Positions 443 to 13,172 of a DNA stretch of 53,102 bases are shown one piece after another. Below the pieces are notes generated by a model, which was given only the letters and a program-made list of their open reading frames with translations, did no database searches and was not told the DNA's origin. The DNA is taken from IMG/VR virus record IMGVR_UViG_3300050501_000425; one strand, written 5' to 3'. This stretch comes from a virus. Both the position numbers and the translations under genes were made by a program. Within the stretch, counting starts at the first letter, position 1. The number at the start of each line of letters is the position of its first letter.

Positions 443-633
443 TCCGAGTCGAGATCCGCATTACCGTCGAGGACGACACCTTCGAGGTGACCGCTGGGCG
501 TGTCCCGTTGGTTCAGCGCAACGCCGATGGGCGCAACGCCCTGGCGGCGGCCAGCTTGGGCCGCTTGTGGACCAAGGCGTGCCGGGATGCTCAGGCGTGG
601 GTTGACGCCAGGCCGGAGAACGGGAATGCCTAG
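439..633 (+). CDS. Hypothetical protein (64 aa)
   Basis: Same frame as ORF 430..633. ATG 439 overlaps the upstream stop (ATGA coupling). Confidence 0.6.
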   Translation: MIRVEIRITVEDDTFEVTAGRVPLVQRNADGRNALAAASLGRLWTKACRDAQAWVDARPENGNA

Positions 634-862
634 ATCAAAGACCACTGGCCGCCGACACGAGATCACCTACGAGTACCTGGTCCAGGGTGGGACCAGGCGC
701 ACTCGTGCCACCTGCGTCTGCGGGAAGCTGGCGACACCGTTCCGATTCACTGCCGCCCAGGCCGAAGAGGACGCCCGGGATCACATGCACAATGTTCCCA
801 GCAAGGGAAAGCCGCCACACAGGGAAGTCAGTAGCCCTTGGGCGGAGTCACTGCAGTATTGA
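626..862 (+). CDS. Hypothetical protein (78 aa)
   Basis: Frame of ORF 500..862. ATG 626 overlaps the upstream TAG (aATGccTAG). Product begins MPRSKTTGRRHEITYEYLV... Confidence 0.6.
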   Translation: MPRSKTTGRRHEITYEYLVQGGTRRTRATCVCGKLATPFRFTAAQAEEDARDHMHNVPSKGKPPHREVSSPWAESLQY

Positions 863-864
863 TC

Positions 865-990
865 ATGAGAGGAAATGGTCAAGTGCCTGACGACAAACCC
901 TCACCCTGGGTCCAGGGCGTGCTCATCGCCATGATCGTGGCCATCGTCTTGGGCATCGTGTTCTGCATCGTGCCCAAGCTCAACCCCTGA
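865..990 (+). CDS. Small membrane protein (41 aa)
   Basis: My translation: MRGNGQVPDDKPSPWVQGVLIAMIVAIVLGIVFCIVPKLNP. It has one hydrophobic helix and starts 2 nt after the upstream stop. Confidence 0.5.
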   Translation: MRGNGQVPDDKPSPWVQGVLIAMIVAIVLGIVFCIVPKLNP

Positions 991-1034
991 GCTAAGATGA
1001 CCCCGCCGTACAGGGGGTGACAAGCCTCCCAGGG

Positions 1035-1211
1035 TCACACCTGGGGGGCTTGGTCTATGGGGACCCAGCGCTTGCCGTCAAAACGCTCAACTCGAAAACG
1101 CTCGGGGTGCTTCAGCTCCCCGTCCAACCATTTGAGCGCGCGGGCGTCGATGTCCCGGCGTTCGTGGGACTGAAAAGCAACCCACGCCCGGAACAGTGGA
1201 TGTTCGGCCAT
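1035..1211 (-). CDS. 58-aa ORF, either independent or the read-through extension of the GGQ protein
   Basis: Same frame as 1218..1409 and open for 60 codons after the TGA. An ATG (1211) lies 6 nt after the stop. Product: MAEHPLFRAWVAFQSHERRDIDARALKWLDGELKHPERFRVERFDGKRWVPIDQAPQV. Confidence 0.35.
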   Translation of the reverse strand: MAEHPLFRAWVAFQSHERRDIDARALKWLDGELKHPERFRVERFDGKRWVPIDQAPQV

Positions 1212-1217
1212 ACGCCT

Positions 1218-1409
1218 TCAAGCCAGGCGCTTGTTCTGCAACTGGCTTCTCTCATCGCGCGCTTCGCCCCGCGCTCCGCTGGGGTGATGGATGATGCGGA
1301 CCCCGGTGTCGCGCTTGTTCTGGTTCTGCCCACCCTTGCCCCCGGCTCTGAAGGTTTGCACCTCGCAGTCCTTCAGGGTCACCGAGAAGACCAGTTCACG
1401 TGTCATCAC
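1218..1409 (-). CDS. GGQ-motif peptidyl-tRNA hydrolase domain protein (class-I release factor / ArfB-like), ends at an in-frame TGA
   Basis: Contains RAGGKGGQNQNKRDTGVRIIHHPSGARGEARDERSQLQNKRLA. This is the GGQ loop followed by the ERSQxxNK helix start typical of RF-1-domain proteins. The ORF ends at TGA 1218-1220. Confidence 0.75.
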   Translation of the reverse strand: MMTRELVFSVTLKDCEVQTFRAGGKGGQNQNKRDTGVRIIHHPSGARGEARDERSQLQNKRLA

Positions 1410-4062
1410 TCGAGGTTACGTCGGGCGGCCCCTCGGTGTCCTCCTCGATCCTGCGGATCCTCCACTTGATGACCTTGGTGTGACCTGTCTCTGCCATCTT
1501 CACCAGCTGGTATCCGTCCAGCACCCGGTCTTTGAGCTTCGAGTACACGATTCCCAACTTGCGGGCATAGCCCTCCTGGAAAGGATCATCCAGGCCGTGG
1601 GGATGCGGAGCGCCGCGCTCCCTGCGCAGGGCATCGGTTACGGCCGCCGAGGTGAACTCTGAGCCAGCGAACTGGGTCTCCAGCCACCACAGGTGGGCCA
1701 CCTGATCCTGGCGCTCAAAATCGCTCTCAGAGCGCCACTGCGGCACATTGACCAAGAAGCCTTCGACCCCGGCCACCCAGAGCACCCCCGCCAGGATCTC
1801 CTGCCACTTCTCGAATGAGCCCATCCGGAACGGCAGTGGCGCCACCGGCTTGCCCAGGGCGAACCAGGCGCGCACCAGGGTCAAGCATGCCCGGACAAGC
1901 TCGCGCCGGTTGTCCATGGCCCATTGCCGCAGGTCAGGGTGCTTGAACTCGGAGGCATCACGTGACTCCGGGCGGGCGCCGGGATACTCCAGCCGCACCC
2001 GGTACACCCGGCGGCTCATGTCTCCCTTGACCTGGACCTGGTTGCCCAGGGACACCCAGGTCCGGTTGTTGGGGAACTCCGCCAGGTCGCTGGCGCCCAG
2101 AACCCGGTCCTGATAGCTGTGGGAAGTCAGCGCGCGGGCGAACGCGGCACCCTCGATCTCATGGGCCTCATCGAAAAGCAGCATCGCCGACCCGGACCGG
2201 AAGGCTGAGGTGATGACCTTGCGTTGCTCCTCCGCCTCCGTGGTGTAGGGCAGCGTCTGGGCCGCCTTGCCCGTGGTGAGGATGGAGATGACATCCGCCA
2301 GCAGGTTCTTGCCCGAGCCTGCCTCCTTGGCGTCGATGACGGCCAGCGGGGATGTCGGGATCAGGTCGCGCACGAACGGGGTGATCAGGGTCGCCAGCGC
2401 GTTGGCCTTGTCCGCCTCGGTGTGCAGCGGGAAGTCACCGAGAAGATCATCAAGCAGGAGCGAGCGCGCCGAGGCCACTTGCTCCCGGGTCGGCGCCGCC
2501 GGGATGTCAATCCCTTGCAGCTGCGGATCAAGCTCGAGGAACGAATGGGTGGGCTCGTCATATCCCGGTGTGGAGCAGATCGTGCCGTCCGGGCGCAGGA
2601 ACGGGATCTGGGAAAGCTTGTCCAGCCTTGAGAACTGCTTCGGGAACGCCATGACCATGCCCAGGATCCGTGACTCGATCAGTGCCTCGACGTAGCGCTC
2701 TTCCCCCTTGACGTTGGTCTTGCGGTTGACCACCTGGCAGGTCTGCGCCGTGATCGCGTCCAGAACATCCTTGGTGGCCGGGCGCATCATCAGGCCTTCG
2801 CGTTCGCAGATCACGTTGCCGTAGTTGAACAAGCGGTCCTTGTCCCAGCGCGACACCAGCTCCTTGGTCAGATTCTGTAGCACGAACCAGCGATCATCAT
2901 TGGCCACCAGCATGTTGCGTGTCACCTCCTGGGGCGGCTGCCCCGACGCCACGGGCCATTGAGGGGGCGCCTGCGCCACGACAGCTGGTATCGGTGCAGC
3001 CGATGCGGTCGGCACAGGGCTGGCTGCCACCATCGGGGTGCGTTGCTGGCCGTATCCCCGTGCGCCCAGTTCCCTTGCGGCTGCTGCGAAATCTCCACGA
3101 TGCTCCAGCAATGTATAGGCGCCGAACTTGTTGTACGGCTTCTCGGTGTCGAATTCGGTACTGGATGACCAGACATAGAGCCGATCATCCAGCCCGGTCC
3201 CGGAGAATCCCGTGCTGGCAGACCATCCCTCGATGCGCTTCTTGCCCGGACGCGTCCAGAAAGTCTCGGTCGCGGTGCGGTGGTGCACCCGCCATCCATG
3301 CGGCTCAAGGATTTCCTCCCAGGACGTCCGGGCAGAGAAGTCGTCACCGGGGCGGGTCAGGTTCATGCCGGTCGGTGGTGTCCGGGGCGCCGGTGGCCGG
3401 ATGAACTCGGGTTCGCTGGGCATTTCGTCCAGGGCTTCATGTATTGCTTCATGAAGGGCACAGCGGTCTGTCCACGTGACCGTGGGGACCTTGCCGATCT
3501 TACCGGCGAAGGTGCTCCAGGTGTCACCACTTGGGTGCACGCTGCCGCCTGAAGGGGCCACGATCACATAGCCGCCTTCGCCCCTGGTCTCGGCCAGCGT
3601 CTTGACCTTGGCGTCAGGATTGTCGGCCAGCTCCTCGGGGGTCGCCGGGCGCCTTGCGATCTTGGTGTTCCCGGGCGGCTCACGGTCCAGGCGGTACAGG
3701 AAGTGGATGCCGCCGGACGGGGTCCATTCGGCATACCCGTCTTCAAGCAGCTGGTCAAGAAGTCCGATGACTCCCCGGGCTTGCGCTTCCCACCTTATGG
3801 CGTCCAGGGCCAGGGAGGTGGTGGCCCGGCCTTCCAGCTCGAGCATCTCCAGGTTGCCCGACACCTTGCCGCAGATGATCCCCACGCCCTGGTGGTGTCC
3901 CTGCCGGTAGAAGCCCTCGATCATCTGCCGGGGGGCGGGGGAGCGCATGAACTGCTTCCACTCGCCCATGGGCCGCTTGGTGCCGTCCTGGGCTGGGGGC
4001 CACACACTACAACCTGCGTCATACCAGGCCAGGGCTGCCTCACACAAAAAATCTTGGGTCAT
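1396..4062 (-). CDS. Bifunctional DNA primase-polymerase (PrimPol-like N-terminus) fused to a D5/P4-type NTPase helicase
   Basis: N-terminus AALAWYDAGCSVWPP...GVGIICG...LELEG...GGIHFLY...GGYVIVAPS is PrimPol-like. Walker A is KEAGSGKN and Walker B is LLFDEAHE. ATG 4062 with GGGAG upstream is preferred over TTG 4083. Confidence 0.85.
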   Translation of the reverse strand: MTQDFLCEAALAWYDAGCSVWPPAQDGTKRPMGEWKQFMRSPAPRQMIEGFYRQGHHQGVGIICGKVSGNLEMLELEGRATTSLALDAIRWEAQARGVIGLLDQLLEDGYAEWTPSGGIHFLYRLDREPPGNTKIARRPATPEELADNPDAKVKTLAETRGEGGYVIVAPSGGSVHPSGDTWSTFAGKIGKVPTVTWTDRCALHEAIHEALDEMPSEPEFIRPPAPRTPPTGMNLTRPGDDFSARTSWEEILEPHGWRVHHRTATETFWTRPGKKRIEGWSASTGFSGTGLDDRLYVWSSSTEFDTEKPYNKFGAYTLLEHRGDFAAAARELGARGYGQQRTPMVAASPVPTASAAPIPAVVAQAPPQWPVASGQPPQEVTRNMLVANDDRWFVLQNLTKELVSRWDKDRLFNYGNVICEREGLMMRPATKDVLDAITAQTCQVVNRKTNVKGEERYVEALIESRILGMVMAFPKQFSRLDKLSQIPFLRPDGTICSTPGYDEPTHSFLELDPQLQGIDIPAAPTREQVASARSLLLDDLLGDFPLHTEADKANALATLITPFVRDLIPTSPLAVIDAKEAGSGKNLLADVISILTTGKAAQTLPYTTEAEEQRKVITSAFRSGSAMLLFDEAHEIEGAAFARALTSHSYQDRVLGASDLAEFPNNRTWVSLGNQVQVKGDMSRRVYRVRLEYPGARPESRDASEFKHPDLRQWAMDNRRELVRACLTLVRAWFALGKPVAPLPFRMGSFEKWQEILAGVLWVAGVEGFLVNVPQWRSESDFERQDQVAHLWWLETQFAGSEFTSAAVTDALRRERGAPHPHGLDDPFQEGYARKLGIVYSKLKDRVLDGYQLVKMAETGHTKVIKWRIRRIEEDTEGPPDVTSSDDT

Positions 4063-4364
4063 GAGGAGGCTCCCGGTTGCCAAGGACTGACTTCATATGA
4101 CATGCTGTCCCTACGATTCTCTGTTTATTGAGGGGCACCCTTGCCGGGGTACCCCTCAAATTTTGGCTGAGGACATCGCAACTCATCGATATGAGACTGC
4201 GACGTGCTGATCAGACTAGCCCATCAGGCGGTGCTGGTGTAAGCGCCACCCGGTCAGATATACTGAAGTCCGATGCGGAATGATCCCCGCCTCCCTGGGA
4301 GTAAGATTCCTCTCTCCTCCCTGAGACCCTGGCAGCTACCCCCGTGGCCGCCAGGGTCTTCTCG

Positions 4365-7182: not shown

Positions 7183-7521
7183 TTACTCCACAGGGTACTC
7201 GTCGTCGGGTGCGTGCCCCGGACCGGTCTTGAGCACGATGTCGTGCACGTGGGTGGTAGCCGCGCGTACCTCGGTGTACATGTCGTGGAAGTCATCGGCG
7301 TTGGCGAAGATGTTCTCCGCCGTCACGACGCCCCCGGACTCCACCAGCCAGCCCCCACGGACCACGGTCAGGTTGACCCCGCCGGAGTTGAAGGTCAACT
7401 CGGTCGCGGTCTCCGAGACCACGGTGAAGTCGAAGATGGCTGCCGCCAGGTCGGCGGAGTTGGTGCCGTCGTAGGTGTAGGCGTTGCGGGCTTCGAAGAC
7501 AGGCATGGCCATCGCTGGCAT
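7183..7521 (-). CDS. Hypothetical protein (112 aa)
   Basis: ORF 7183..7563. ATG 7521 is preceded by GGGAGG. Confidence 0.65.
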   Translation of the reverse strand: MPAMAMPVFEARNAYTYDGTNSADLAAAIFDFTVVSETATELTFNSGGVNLTVVRGGWLVESGGVVTAENIFANADDFHDMYTEVRAATTHVHDIVLKTGPGHAPDDEYPVE

Positions 7522-7566
7522 ATTACCTCCCAGGTCTACTACGTCTCCTATACCCACAACCATAGA

Positions 7567-7983
7567 TCAAACCACCGTATGCCTGCACCTGACGAAAGAC
7601 GGCCCGTTCTTGCGATCCTGCACCGGCGGATGGCTGCCCTGGCGGACCATGCAGTACAACGTGGTGCCATAGAACTGTTCGGCATACACCTCCACCACCT
7701 CCCCCTTGCGGGGATAGAGCGTCCTCTCCCAGGGTGACCTGGTTGACCTCTCGGTGGGATACGGCTGTGCGCCGACCATCAGCTGGATGGTCACCTGGTC
7801 TTTGAGGGAGCGTCCCGGCGGAGGCTTGCCGGAGCGCCGCGTCGGCTCGAACTCCACCAGGACGGTGACGCTGCCGTCGTCGGGGTCCAGGGTCTTCTGC
7901 AGGGAGGGGAGAAGGATCCAAGCACCCACCCCGAGGATGGCCACCACGAACAAGGTGGGGACCATTCTGACCGTCTTGTTCAT
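7567..7983 (-). CDS. Membrane-anchored protein, tentatively MmpS-like
   Basis: N-terminal TM VPTLFVVAILGVGAWILL, then a roughly 100-aa beta-type domain ending ...LYCMVRQG. Start is ATGA-coupled. Confidence 0.5.
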   Translation of the reverse strand: MNKTVRMVPTLFVVAILGVGAWILLPSLQKTLDPDDGSVTVLVEFEPTRRSGKPPPGRSLKDQVTIQLMVGAQPYPTERSTRSPWERTLYPRKGEVVEVYAEQFYGTTLYCMVRQGSHPPVQDRKNGPSFVRCRHTVV

Positions 7984-9192: not shown

Positions 9193-9471
9193 CCATGTCA
9201 TGTCAACTCCTTTCCGGTGCCCATGGGAGAGCACCATGACACCGCGCCGTCGGGTCCTGGATCGCCAGGAAACGCTTTGTGTCATGGTGCTCATGGTGAA
9301 CGGCTTCGCTGCCGCTCAGCCCGAACATCAAGCTCGCTTCGCTCGCTTGATGAAGGCGCAGGTACGGCTCCCCGGTCCATGCCGCCCAGAGTGTCGAAGA
9401 AGCAACATGGTGGATCATGACCGTCCTTGCCCGACAAAGACAGAACTAGGAAAACGGGTTTGACGCCTTCG

Positions 9472-9543
9472 TGCCCTCGGCTGGGTTCGAACCAGCGTCC
9501 TCGCCGTGCTCTTGGCGCGCTCATCCCACTGAGCTACGGGGGC
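9472..9543 (-). ncRNA. tRNA-like RNA (72 nt) with a defective anticodon arm
   Basis: Minus sense: GCCCCCG UA GCUC AGUGGGAU GAGC ... GCUGG UUCGAAC CCAGC CGAGGGC A. D and T arms are canonical. The acceptor has one C.A mismatch. The anticodon arm is only a 4-bp stem (CGCC/GGCG) with loop AAGAGCAC and no U33. No CCA is encoded. Confidence 0.6.
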
Positions 9544-12593: not shown

Positions 12594-12725
12594 TGACTCG
12601 GTGGCACAGTGAACATCCAGGCGAAGCCCGTGATCCGTTGTCTGGATGCTGGATCCACTTAGTGCCACCGGTTTGTTACTAGCATCGGGGCTACGGTCTC
12701 GACCGCGCCGGGGCGCCGAGCTACG

Positions 12726-12798
12726 CTGACCCAGCAGGACTCGAACCTGCAACCTGATGATTAACAGCCACCTGCGCTGCCGATTGCGCCATGGGTCA
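12726..12798 (-). tRNA. tRNA-Asn (anticodon GUU)
   Basis: Full cloverleaf drawn by hand. Acceptor UGACCCA/UGGGUCA, U8, D arm GCGC-AAUCGGCA-GCGC, anticodon arm GGUGG-CUGUUAA-UCAUC, variable AGGUU, T arm GCAGG-UUCGAGU-CCUGC, discriminator G. No CCA is encoded. Confidence 0.85.
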
Positions 12799-13028: not shown

Positions 13029-13172
13029 GACCTCAGAGTTCAAGGGCTGTCTCGGAAATGGGAGCGGACTCGAACCGCCAACCTTCCGGTCTCAACCGGA
13101 CGCTCTACCAATTGAGCTACCCCGATGAATTGTTGGTATCGGGAAGTATCCGAAACATTCGCACCTGAGATC
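13029..13172 (-). ncRNA. Y RNA-like module F (normal-order tRNA-like cloverleaf inside the conserved stem)
   Basis: GAUCUCA-GGUGCGA-AUGUUU-CGGAUACUUC ... GCUC-AAUUGGUA-GAGC G UCCGG-UUGAGAC-CCGGA AGGUU GGCGG-UUCGAGU-CCGCU ... CUUGAACUC-UGAGGUC. The closing stem is 7 bp with one G.U. Confidence 0.7.

Follow-up and report, generated by a model that had tools for sequence, protein, structure and literature searches.

An in-frame UGA conserved in a stand-alone GGQ gene of a putative actinophage: a candidate site of low-level read-through

Why should a viral gene for a Gly-Gly-Gln (GGQ) protein of the release-factor type be closed by a UGA codon in the middle of a helix, when the same reading frame stays open well beyond it? 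The window analysed here is the whole 53,102-nucleotide stretch of the IMG/VR virus record IMGVR_UViG_3300050501_000425, and a first-pass annotation, made from the letters alone, had noted that the GGQ/RF-1-domain ORF on the minus strand stops right after ...ERSQLQNKRLA and that the frame then remains open for 60 more codons. Both observations hold (Table 1), the continuation reading RR followed by MAEHPLF...QAPQV before a second TGA is reached. The start was taken as the ATG at 1406; the ORF lister offers a GTG at 1409, and the homologues begin MTRELV or MSRELA. The stop of the preceding primase/helicase-like gene lies inside the start of the GGQ ORF, and this ATGACACGTGA overlap suggests that the two are translationally coupled. 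The homology of the two halves to one gene, the conservation of the TGA, the purifying selection downstream of it, its repeated origin at Trp-compatible sites and the bias in its context were computed here, and together they indicate that 1406..1035 is probably a single gene of an uncultured actinophage that encodes a stand-alone GGQ protein (release-factor domain 3) of 123 aa, and in which the UGA at codon 63 is maintained by selection as a site of low-level read-through as Trp.

Table 1. Positions of the features of the GGQ locus in the window.
Feature	Position	Strand	Basis
GGQ gene, upstream segment, codons 1-62 (MTRELV...NKRLA)	1221..1406	-	Pfam RF-1; alignment with mycobacteriophage RF-1 proteins; AlphaFold2 model of P0001
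Catalytic Gly-Gly-Gln motif GGT GGG CAG, codons 25-27	1326..1334	-	Columns invariant in a 104-sequence alignment
In-frame TGA, codon 63, context GCU UGA AGG	1218..1220	-	Phe (TTC/TTT) or Trp (TGG) in homologues
Downstream segment, codons 64-123 (RRMAEHPLFRAWVAFQSHE...)	1038..1217	-	Homologous to the C-terminal half of uninterrupted members; purifying selection
Terminal TGA of the full-length frame	1035..1037	-	ORF reading
ATG of Met66, two codons past the TGA; possible restart codon if the gene is split	1209..1211	-	58-aa ORF; Met invariant in the family
TGG of Trp75, the family's invariant Trp; TGA in the sister lineage and about six other lineages	1182..1184	-	Comparison of relatives
Hairpin CCGAACA-UCCAC-UGUUC(C)GG of the first-pass annotation, real but weak	1188..1207	-	Folding
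Small hairpin CGCCU-GGCUUGA-AGGCG, UGA in its 7-nt loop	1213..1229	-	Scan match; present in the 121-nt minimum-free-energy fold; invariant throughout the TGA63 lineage
Stop codon of the upstream 895-aa primase/helicase-like gene, inside the GGQ ORF start (ATGACACGTGA overlap)	1396..1398	-	PHROG 19930 DNA polymerase/primase

The idea that the two ORFs form a single GGQ gene is borne out by homology, since both halves are homologous to one PHROG 3122 protein. When the TGA is read through, the product is collinear over its full length with actinophage homologues of 114-133 aa, and the PHROG 3122 profile matches it with E=1.7e-35. The Pfam RF-1 domain is found in the 63-aa ORF (E=1.9e-15) and in the read-through product (E=4.3e-17), the latter match crossing the stop to residue 70. 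Homologues from mycobacteriophages, IMG/VR and metagenomes are single ORFs with ...NKRLA-[F/W]-RRMAE..., and because the uninterrupted members read ...NKRLA-F-RRMAE... straight across the position, the interruption is not a chance one. An alignment of homologous phage genes, proposed in the first-pass annotation, thus gives a sense codon at the position (Phe, sometimes Trp), a conserved TGA in the nearest relatives and a downstream part that is homologous rather than unrelated, which is the result that speaks for recoding. In the AlphaFold2 model of an uninterrupted relative (P0001), helix 1 is predicted to be divided between the two segments: its first half belongs to the upstream segment, together with three beta strands and the GGQ loop, and its remainder to the downstream segment, with a long helix 2 and a beta hairpin.

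Sequence and fold matches, C12orf65 among them, cover catalytic domain 3 only, with the codon-reading domains 2 and 4 unmatched, and the protein scores far below the cut-offs of the prfA, prfB, prfH and ArfB models (58 bits against a cut-off of 370 for prfB; 25.4 bits against 100 for the ArfB equivalog model NF006718). It resembles ArfB, ICT1 and C12orf65 (MTRFR) in being a small stand-alone GGQ fold of release-factor domain 3 that does not recognize stop codons, but differs from them in that its modelled C-terminal half is a long helix plus a beta hairpin and not a basic tail, the phage family being compared by sequence and model only. In family and length it corresponds to the actinophage 'RF-1 domain peptide chain release factor' (PHROG 3122; Nanosmite gp140, cluster C gp200-214), a family often found in or near phage tRNA arrays (PMC5966550). 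The difference is that all 236 matching records from isolated, sequenced phages are uninterrupted, whereas an in-frame TGA is conserved in the window and its clade.

The identical string GCT TGA AGG CGT ATG is present in L093, L259, L260/261 and L262-264, which derive from different JGI and ENA samples, and in L259 this interrupted allele has other genes around it. Between the window and L093 there are 13 synonymous and one non-synonymous differences upstream of the stop and 23 synonymous and four non-synonymous differences downstream of it, which gives 36 against five over both segments. On this comparative evidence TGA63 is neither an error nor a recent nonsense mutation. In line with the annotation's interpretation, the same TGA recurs in independent metagenomes and the downstream part is under purifying selection, and the annotation's alternative of a nonsense or sequencing error is contradicted by the presence of this TGA in at least four independently assembled, diverged sequences. 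A shared systematic assembly error is implausible because of the 36 synonymous differences from L093. Codons 57-67 (eleven) are invariant in four TGA63 sequences, and this is uninformative as to synonymous-site constraint around the TGA because the clade without a TGA there conserves this stretch too.

The other sampled close relatives (about 90% identity over the upstream part) all have an in-frame TGA 12 codons later, at codon 75, the position of the family's invariant Trp, and those whose DNA was checked encode Phe at codon 63. This sister lineage carries TGA75 in more than 19 sequences, and downstream of the TGA its dN/dS is 0.14 (pS 0.62). On a neighbour-joining tree without support values, the TGA63 lineage is nested in the TGA75 clade, which lacks uninterrupted members, and for that reason the stop appears to have been relocated and not lost. 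TGA75 is also found in L026, L035 together with L046/L107, L095, L027, L102 and L056, at separate places on the tree. Altogether, 23 of the 117 unique sequences have TGA at codon 63 or 75, while none of the 117 has an in-frame TAG or TAA and none has TGA at the other conserved Trp of the family. Judged from these sequences, an in-frame UGA has arisen in the family on at least seven or eight occasions, and only at Trp-compatible codons. The family itself has at least 1,788 hits. The C-terminal ORF is intact to its normal end in every interrupted lineage except L056, and in L046, L026, L027 and L095 the conserved codons right after the TGA vary only synonymously among relatives. Another family member, L055, looks frameshifted.

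The codon ahead of the TGA ends in U in seven of nine lineages and in A in the remaining two; only 2 of about 35 high-GC relatives with TGG have a U-ending codon there (Fisher p=3e-5 against the TGA lineages, which are partly related), and GTG precedes the TGA in two clade members. The base 3' of the interrupting TGA is A or C and never U. At the 30 gene ends with TGA inspected in the window, many of which lie in TGATG or ATGA overlaps, the following base is most often U (12/30). Work in E. coli indicates that A as the 3' base is not the weakest terminator context, and A is the base in the window. As to RNA structure, the annotation had proposed the hairpin at 1188-1207 as a stimulator of read-through or Sec insertion. 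Its existence and its start 10 nt 3' of the UGA stand, but a role as stimulator is not supported, since the hairpin is weak (-4.1 kcal/mol), the folding of the region is not significant against shuffles (z of -1.74 for 77 nt and -0.32 for 121 nt) and no conserved downstream structure was found in the sister clade with its own TGA (RNAalifold covariation term +0.63). L093 keeps the stem, both of its changes falling in the loop. A-to-I editing of UGA to UGG in the 7-nt loop of the smaller hairpin was considered and dropped, as the loop lacks UACG, the motif edited by TadA, and an internal TTGAC -35 promoter element formed by U-UGA-C was dropped likewise, no -10 partner being seen.

From these comparisons we infer that read-through takes place, that Trp is inserted and what the arrangement is for. 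The majority of ribosomes would stop at UGA 63 and release a 62-aa fragment, and on a minority of them near-cognate Trp-tRNA would decode the UGA, inserting Trp where natural homologues have Phe or Trp and giving the full-length protein. In E. coli, Trp-tRNA competing with RF2 reads through UGA at about 2-4% (PMC10570021). A leaky stop would therefore set a low level of the complete factor, which may also follow the balance between RF2 and Trp-tRNA, and the purpose could be the dosing of a potentially toxic factor or the sensing of termination capacity. Against read-through, retention of the TGA within the clade also fits near-neutral tolerance at the divergence sampled (by a rough estimate only about one reversion is expected).

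The main rival for this window is termination followed by reinitiation. Here the gene would be split, with termination at the UGA at 1220..1218 and restart at the AUG at 1211..1209 six nucleotides on, giving 62-aa GGQ and 58-aa C-terminal fragments that act together or separately and need no read-through. The annotation too had offered a truncated GGQ protein with a separate 58-aa ORF from this ATG as an alternative. The window and every TGA63 relative have an ATG two codons past the TGA. In the TGA75 sister lineage codon 78, Arg in uninterrupted relatives, is ATG, or in L081 GTG, which is also a start codon, and L102 too has ATG at +3; with a start exactly two codons past the TGA in each of these, reinitiation could supply the C-terminal part as a separate peptide, and gene callers do list the downstream ORFs as separate proteins of 41-58 aa. 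However, Met66 is invariant across the whole family, so that the ATG of the window is ancestral and not an adaptation, and ATG at codon 78 is found in two of seven TGA75 lineages against about 10% of uninterrupted sequences, an enrichment that is not significant. In L046, L026, L027 and L095 no in-frame start codon lies between the TGA and the conserved downstream codons, and the two codons between TGA and ATG in the TGA75 clade change only synonymously (ATA/ATT, GCC/GCG). As read from the sequence, neither the ATG at 1211 nor its counterpart in the TGA75 clade is preceded by a usable Shine-Dalgarno spacing. In the predicted fold the break cuts helix 1 midway, and a split gene leaves unexplained why the interruption is always TGA and always at Trp-compatible codons. 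We regard reinitiation as rather unlikely, and low-level read-through as the better account of the locus.

By the analogy with prfB drawn in the annotation, ribosomes that pause at the UGA of this gene might release their peptide through the full-length GGQ factor, or the making of the factor might report the RF2 capacity of the host, so that the level of the factor would be self-limiting. This loop would be a refinement of low-level read-through, possible only if read-through occurs, and we think it quite unlikely. In its favour, the product is a member of the release-factor catalytic-domain superfamily, it is in this GGQ family specifically that UGA interruptions have recurred and have moved instead of being lost, UGA read-through depends on the competition between RF2 and Trp-tRNA (PMC10570021), and two lineages have CUU UGA C, as at the prfB shift site. 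The likeness to prfB (RF2) is that of a GGQ-superfamily gene with an in-frame UGA that has to be bypassed for the full protein, the bypass competing with termination by RF2. The differences are that prfB shifts by +1 whereas the phage gene continues in the zero frame, that the stop is at codon 26 in prfB and at codon 63 or 75 in the phage genes, and that the window has GCU UGA A with neither a Shine-Dalgarno-like stimulator nor the required CUU slippery codon. A prfB-type +1 frameshift, suggested by CTT TGA C in L027 and L046, was rejected as the conserved protein continues in the zero frame past the TGA. Moreover, with domain 3 only and scores far under the prfA, prfB, prfH and ArfB cut-offs, the phage product would be unable to read UGA; that it would act on a ribosome whose A site is occupied by a stop codon is conjecture, the feedback is drawn by analogy, and a plain attenuator accounts for the same comparative data. 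It is similarly doubtful that the UGA is a built-in sensor, evolved repeatedly in phages as a read-through analogue of prfB autoregulation, that gates synthesis of the full GGQ factor by the UGA-termination capacity of the host (RF2 against Trp-tRNA), perhaps with feedback by the factor. If it were, the phage could restrict a stop-codon-independent peptidyl-tRNA hydrolase to times when termination or translation is impaired, as when host defences attack tRNAs or ribosomes.

Dedicated decoding of the UGA, be it as selenocysteine, by a phage- or host-encoded suppressor tRNA with a UCA anticodon or through genome-wide reassignment of TGA, is very improbable. The hairpin 10 nt past the UGA and two aberrant tRNA-like genes in the window could be taken in its favour, but the hairpin is weak and unconserved in the family, no UCA-anticodon tRNA was found in the window or in 15 related loci, and TGA is the dominant terminator of the window (39 of 63 rough ORFs), in line with the annotation's view that there is no genome-wide recoding. 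Its suggestion of Sec insertion is rejected because the homologues have Phe or Trp at the position and never Cys. A rough scan of the window for further TGA-joined pairs of coding ORFs returned only ordinary gene junctions, and one in-frame pair (7983..7567 and 7563..7183, joined by GTT TGA TCT ATG), considered as a second split gene, was uninformative, no homologues having been found. Phage stop-codon recoding, in which TAG or TGA is reassigned in late genes (Borges et al., 2022, as cited in PMC13092985), likewise places in-frame stops in functional phage genes; as presented there it differs in affecting many, mainly late, genes together with suppressor tRNAs or release-factor changes, whereas the window has one interrupted gene in an early region, TGA as the normal terminator elsewhere and no suppressor tRNA. 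A dead gene or artefact, whether a decaying pseudogene with a nonsense mutation or a mistake in sequencing or assembly, would suit the 236 uninterrupted isolate records, the frameshifted appearance of L055 and the missing C-terminal part of L056, but is scarcely credible against the identical TGA in independent assemblies, the strong purifying selection downstream and the otherwise intact C-terminal ORFs.

Functional stop-codon read-through is well documented in RNA viruses. In the Qbeta coat/A1 system near-cognate Trp-tRNA decodes a leaky UGA, so that short and long products are made in a fixed ratio, and the same low-frequency decoding by Trp-tRNA is what we propose, from sequence alone, for the phage gene. 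The latter differs in that the UGA replaces a conserved sense codon within a domain and does not mark the boundary between a core and an extension. To our knowledge, functional read-through is rare and poorly catalogued in DNA phages and bacteria, and our literature searches found no description of in-frame UGA codons in phage GGQ genes. Among bacteria, the 'pseudo-pseudogenes' of Salmonella are interrupted genes that are still expressed at a low level (PMC9122581). What sets the phage UGA apart from both the Qbeta and the Salmonella cases is its conservation, its repeated origin and its change of position inside a single DNA-phage gene family.

The GGQ family may thus serve as a natural experiment in which a small translation-factor gene has gained UGA repeatedly, in a recognizable context, and in which one clade has moved the stop by 12 codons, offering comparative evidence on leaky UGA contexts in high-GC (actinobacterial) systems. 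Automated annotation splits or truncates such genes into 'RF-1' proteins of 62 or 74 aa and orphan ORFs of 41-58 aa. The uncharacterised phage GGQ proteins, often encoded in tRNA arrays, become open to direct tests of function and dosage sensitivity. In L056 the TGA is followed by 10 codons and then by a terminator-like hairpin, the C-terminal part being lost; the short form alone may therefore function in some phages.

The two minus-strand ORFs separated by the in-frame TGA at codon 63 (TGA63) are halves of one release-factor-like GGQ gene, the homologue alignment having a sense codon for Phe or Trp at the stop position. The first-pass annotation had described this split accurately. The Pfam RF-1 domain (PF00472) gave E=1.9e-15 for the upstream ORF, and with the 123-aa read-through product its match crossed the stop to residue 70. 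A mechanical ORF list offers GTG 1409 as an alternative start; the N-terminus of homologues is MTRELV or MSRELA. At the DNA level, similarity to the 'RF-1 peptide chain release factor' genes of mycobacteriophages continues through the stop codon, and Nanosmite gp140, EniyanLRS gp129, WXIN and Colt gp201, each one unbroken ORF of 114-120 aa, have ...ERSQLQNKRLA-F-RRMAE... at this place; 72 IMG/VR loci and ~38 metagenome loci likewise show both ORFs as parts of one gene, with mostly Phe, and in several cases Trp (AWRRM), at codon 63. In the phage collection the gene was uninterrupted in all 236 matching records.

Features of the window and of three homologous loci, each numbered on its own sequence
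Sequence	Feature	Coordinates	Strand	Remarks
Window	Upstream GGQ ORF	ATG 1406 to TGA 1220..1218	minus	encodes MTRELVFSVTLKDCEVQTFRAGGKGGQNQNKRDTGVRIIHHPSGARGEARDERSQLQNKRLA
Window	Downstream open frame	to TGA 1037..1035	minus	60 codons, RR-MAEHPLFRAWVAFQSHERRDIDARALKWLDGELKHPERFRVERFDGKRWVPIDQAPQV
Window	Primase/helicase-like gene, upstream	1396..4083	minus	895 aa; PHROG 19930; stop codon overlaps GGQ ORF start
Window	Hairpin containing UGG of Trp75	1165-1187	minus	CGUGGG-(12 nt)-CCCACG
Window	Hairpin downstream of TGA63	1188-1207
Window	Small hairpin around TGA63	1213-1229	minus	UGA in 7-nt loop; invariant in TGA63 lineage
Window	ORF pair	7183-7983	minus	138 + 126 aa; in-frame join GTT TGA TCT ATG
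Window	tRNA-like gene	9471-9543	minus	ARAGORN, 6-nt anticodon loop; Rfam does not confirm
Window	tRNA-Asn	12725-12798	minus
Window	tRNA-like gene	13054-13127	minus	ARAGORN, 6-nt anticodon loop; Rfam tRNA 45 bits; poor acceptor stem
L056	Low-GC GGQ locus	3001-3290
L259	TGA63 allele	1276-1668		flanking genes on minus strand
L265	RlaP gene	586-1893		PF10127; contig Ga0606630_0000287

The gene belongs to PHROG 3122 (E=1.7e-35), a family that scores far below the cut-offs of the NCBIfam prfA, prfB, prfH and ArfB models and whose sequence and fold matches are confined to domain 3 of class I release factors, PrfH and C12orf65. For P0001, an uninterrupted relative, AlphaFold2 predicts (pLDDT 86.9) three strands together with the GGQ loop, then helix 1, helix 2 (31 residues) and, at the end, a beta hairpin; codon 63 maps halfway along helix 1 and codon 75, the family's invariant Trp, close to where helix 2 begins.

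When the read-through product was used as a protein query, the matches fell into two classes. Those of ~70% identity are full length (118-138 aa), and the closest, which share ~90% identity in the upstream part, have 74-75 aa (one gene call has 87 aa owing to an upstream start) and end in ...HPLFR[VA] directly before the invariant Trp. The DNA of these closest matches, from many independent samples and mostly with the same primase gene upstream, reads GTT TGA AT[A/T] GC[C/G] ATG, and past this TGA at codon 75 (TGA75) the frame runs on as IAMQSHE...WLDGEL..PERFRVERFDGK.W, matching the C-terminal half in the window. Across 13 sequences of the TGA75 clade (pS=0.62), dN/dS was 0.07 (codons 1-62), 0.19 (codons 64-74) and 0.14 (codons 76-115). 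In a neighbour-joining tree of 117 unique family sequences, calculated without support values, the clade of the window and its closest relatives is interrupted in every member, and the TGA63 lineage, with the window and the homologous locus L093, is nested in the TGA75 group. In the window lineage Trp75 is TGG, while Phe63 (TTC, two changes from TGA) became TGA, and on this tree the interruption was moved, not lost.

TGA also occupies the Trp75 codon in six further lineages of homologous loci (L026, L035 with L046/L107, L095, L027, L102 and L056), scattered over the tree beside TGG relatives. A TGA at codon 63 or 75 occurs in 23 of the 117 unique sequences, with no in-frame TAG or TAA in any of the 117; the second conserved Trp codon, close to the C-terminus, is TGA in none of them. 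TGG to TAG and TGG to TGA are each a single transition. That all seven independent events gave TGA therefore speaks against random nonsense mutation (0.5^7, ~0.008, with equal rates assumed), and the pattern fits UGA being the sole stop codon readable by Trp-tRNA through a third-position mismatch. Trp is tolerated at both interrupted positions in natural homologues, as expected if the inserted residue is Trp. One of the 117, L055 (IMG/VR 3300017613_003079), looks frameshifted, its C-terminal half being unlike its close relatives L063 and L112 past ~residue 85, probably through a frameshift or an assembly error.

In L046, L026, L027 and L095, L-x-x-[EQT]-[TL]-G-[RQH] is conserved directly after the TGA, the codons differing synonymously among relatives (e.g., ACT CTC GGT CAA, ACG TTG GGG CAA and ACG CTA GGA CAG). 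No in-frame ATG, GTG or TTG precedes these residues in the four loci, and on sequence grounds the ribosome would have to pass the UGA. Read-through is probably the general mechanism. For the window the main rival is termination followed by reinitiation, which we consider unlikely: an ATG does lie two codons downstream of the TGA in the window, the TGA75 sister lineage and L102, but in the window this is Met66, which is invariant throughout the family and therefore no adaptation, TGA lineages show no significant enrichment of ATG at codon 78, and the two codons between TGA and ATG vary synonymously only (ATA/ATT, GCC/GCG).

The context of the TGAs is biased. In seven of nine lineages the last base of the preceding codon is U (GCU, GUU x3, CUU x2, ACU), and in the other two it is A (CUA, GUA), although interrupted loci other than L056 (41%) have 57-64% GC and only 11% of the window's third codon positions are U. 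A U-ending codon precedes TGG in only 2 of ~35 high-GC relatives (Fisher p=3e-5 vs the TGA lineages, which are not fully independent); exceptions are L255 and L256, with GTG before TGA, and L265, the uninterrupted sister, whose TGG follows GCT. Directly 3' of the TGA stands A in the window's clade and C in all other lineages, never U or G; by contrast, the base that most often follows the window's ordinary TGA stops is U (12/30). UGA followed by C is a recognized weak terminator, and the P-site codon modulates read-through (PMC9841425, on mammalian cells).

The downstream hairpin proposed earlier as a read-through stimulator does exist (~-4 kcal/mol), but the region is not unusually structured relative to shuffles (z=-1.74, -0.32); in L093 both substitutions fall in the loop, leaving the stem intact with no compensatory change, and no downstream hairpin common to the other interrupted loci was found. 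For 11 TGA75 sequences RNAalifold yielded a weak fold whose covariation term was positive. The small hairpin around TGA63 would be melted once the stop codon enters the A site. The hairpin containing the Trp75 codon has a counterpart in L093 (CAUGGG...CCCAUG), in which a G:C to A:U double change keeps the pair and both codon changes (GCG to GCA, CAC to CAT) are synonymous; from a single sequence pair, this could be coincidence. Neither tRNA-like gene in the window has a UCA anticodon: ARAGORN gives 'anticodons' ag (9471-9543) and ga (13054-13127), and the loop of the latter, UUGAGA, would correspond to a GAG (Leu) anticodon lacking one base.

The family is predicted to encode a codon-independent GGQ hydrolase domain. 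Its genes often lie within phage tRNA arrays, an association likewise noted for mycobacteria (PMC5966550); in L026, L005, L010, L011 and L015 (IMG/VR) these are dense (10-20 tRNA genes within 6 kb), and in L026 a tRNA begins 10 nt past the GGQ stop codon. In the uninterrupted sister group (L265 and the 54.6-kb contig of the homologous protein P0003) a gene for RlaP, an RNA-repair-associated nucleotidyltransferase, stands two genes upstream of the GGQ gene, a neighbourhood that recalls the PrfH-RtcB pairing and hints at a connection to RNA repair. Since the GGQ domain, tRNA arrays and RlaP neighbour point there, the protein may have a role in handling stalled ribosomes during infection. With UGA read-through in Escherichia coli at ~2-4% (PMC10570021), a leaky UGA at a Trp-compatible codon would in one step reduce a factor that may be toxic to a few per cent of its output, leaving its sequence unchanged, and would couple that output to the balance of RF2 and Trp-tRNA. 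The first-pass annotation suggested a prfB-like feedback of the factor on its own stop codon; the data allow for this but lend it no specific support, and we think it quite improbable. In L056 only 10 codons separate the TGA at Trp75 from a TAA, after which comes a strong terminator-like hairpin (z=-2.65); this locus appears to encode a genuinely short 72-aa GGQ protein, because of which the short product may have its own function.

Both leaky read-through of UGA and release-factor synthesis gated by UGA are already known, and our literature search found no report of an in-frame UGA in phage GGQ genes; what is new is the combination, a UGA that is conserved, has recurred and can be relocated, at Trp-compatible codons of such a gene. 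The ORF pair elsewhere in the window has the same local pattern as the GGQ clade, neither ORF has PHROG or database homologues, and it is probably an ordinary gene junction.

The sequence CGC CTG GCT TGA AGG CGT ATG recurs identically in L093 (another JGI sample), L260 and L261 (ENA assemblies), L262-264 (identical copies of the window allele) and L259, which comes from a different JGI project and is only 76% identical in its C-terminal part. Between the window and L093 there are 13 synonymous and 1 non-synonymous differences upstream of the TGA and 23 and 4, respectively, downstream, so TGA63 has been kept through substantial divergence and under strong downstream purifying selection. A sequencing error or dead gene is ruled out by the identical TGA in other assemblies and by this selection. 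L259 has another gene neighbourhood, without the primase gene upstream; there the gene caller skipped the upstream GGQ ORF and called the 55-aa downstream ORF alone, illustrating how interrupted genes are lost in annotation.
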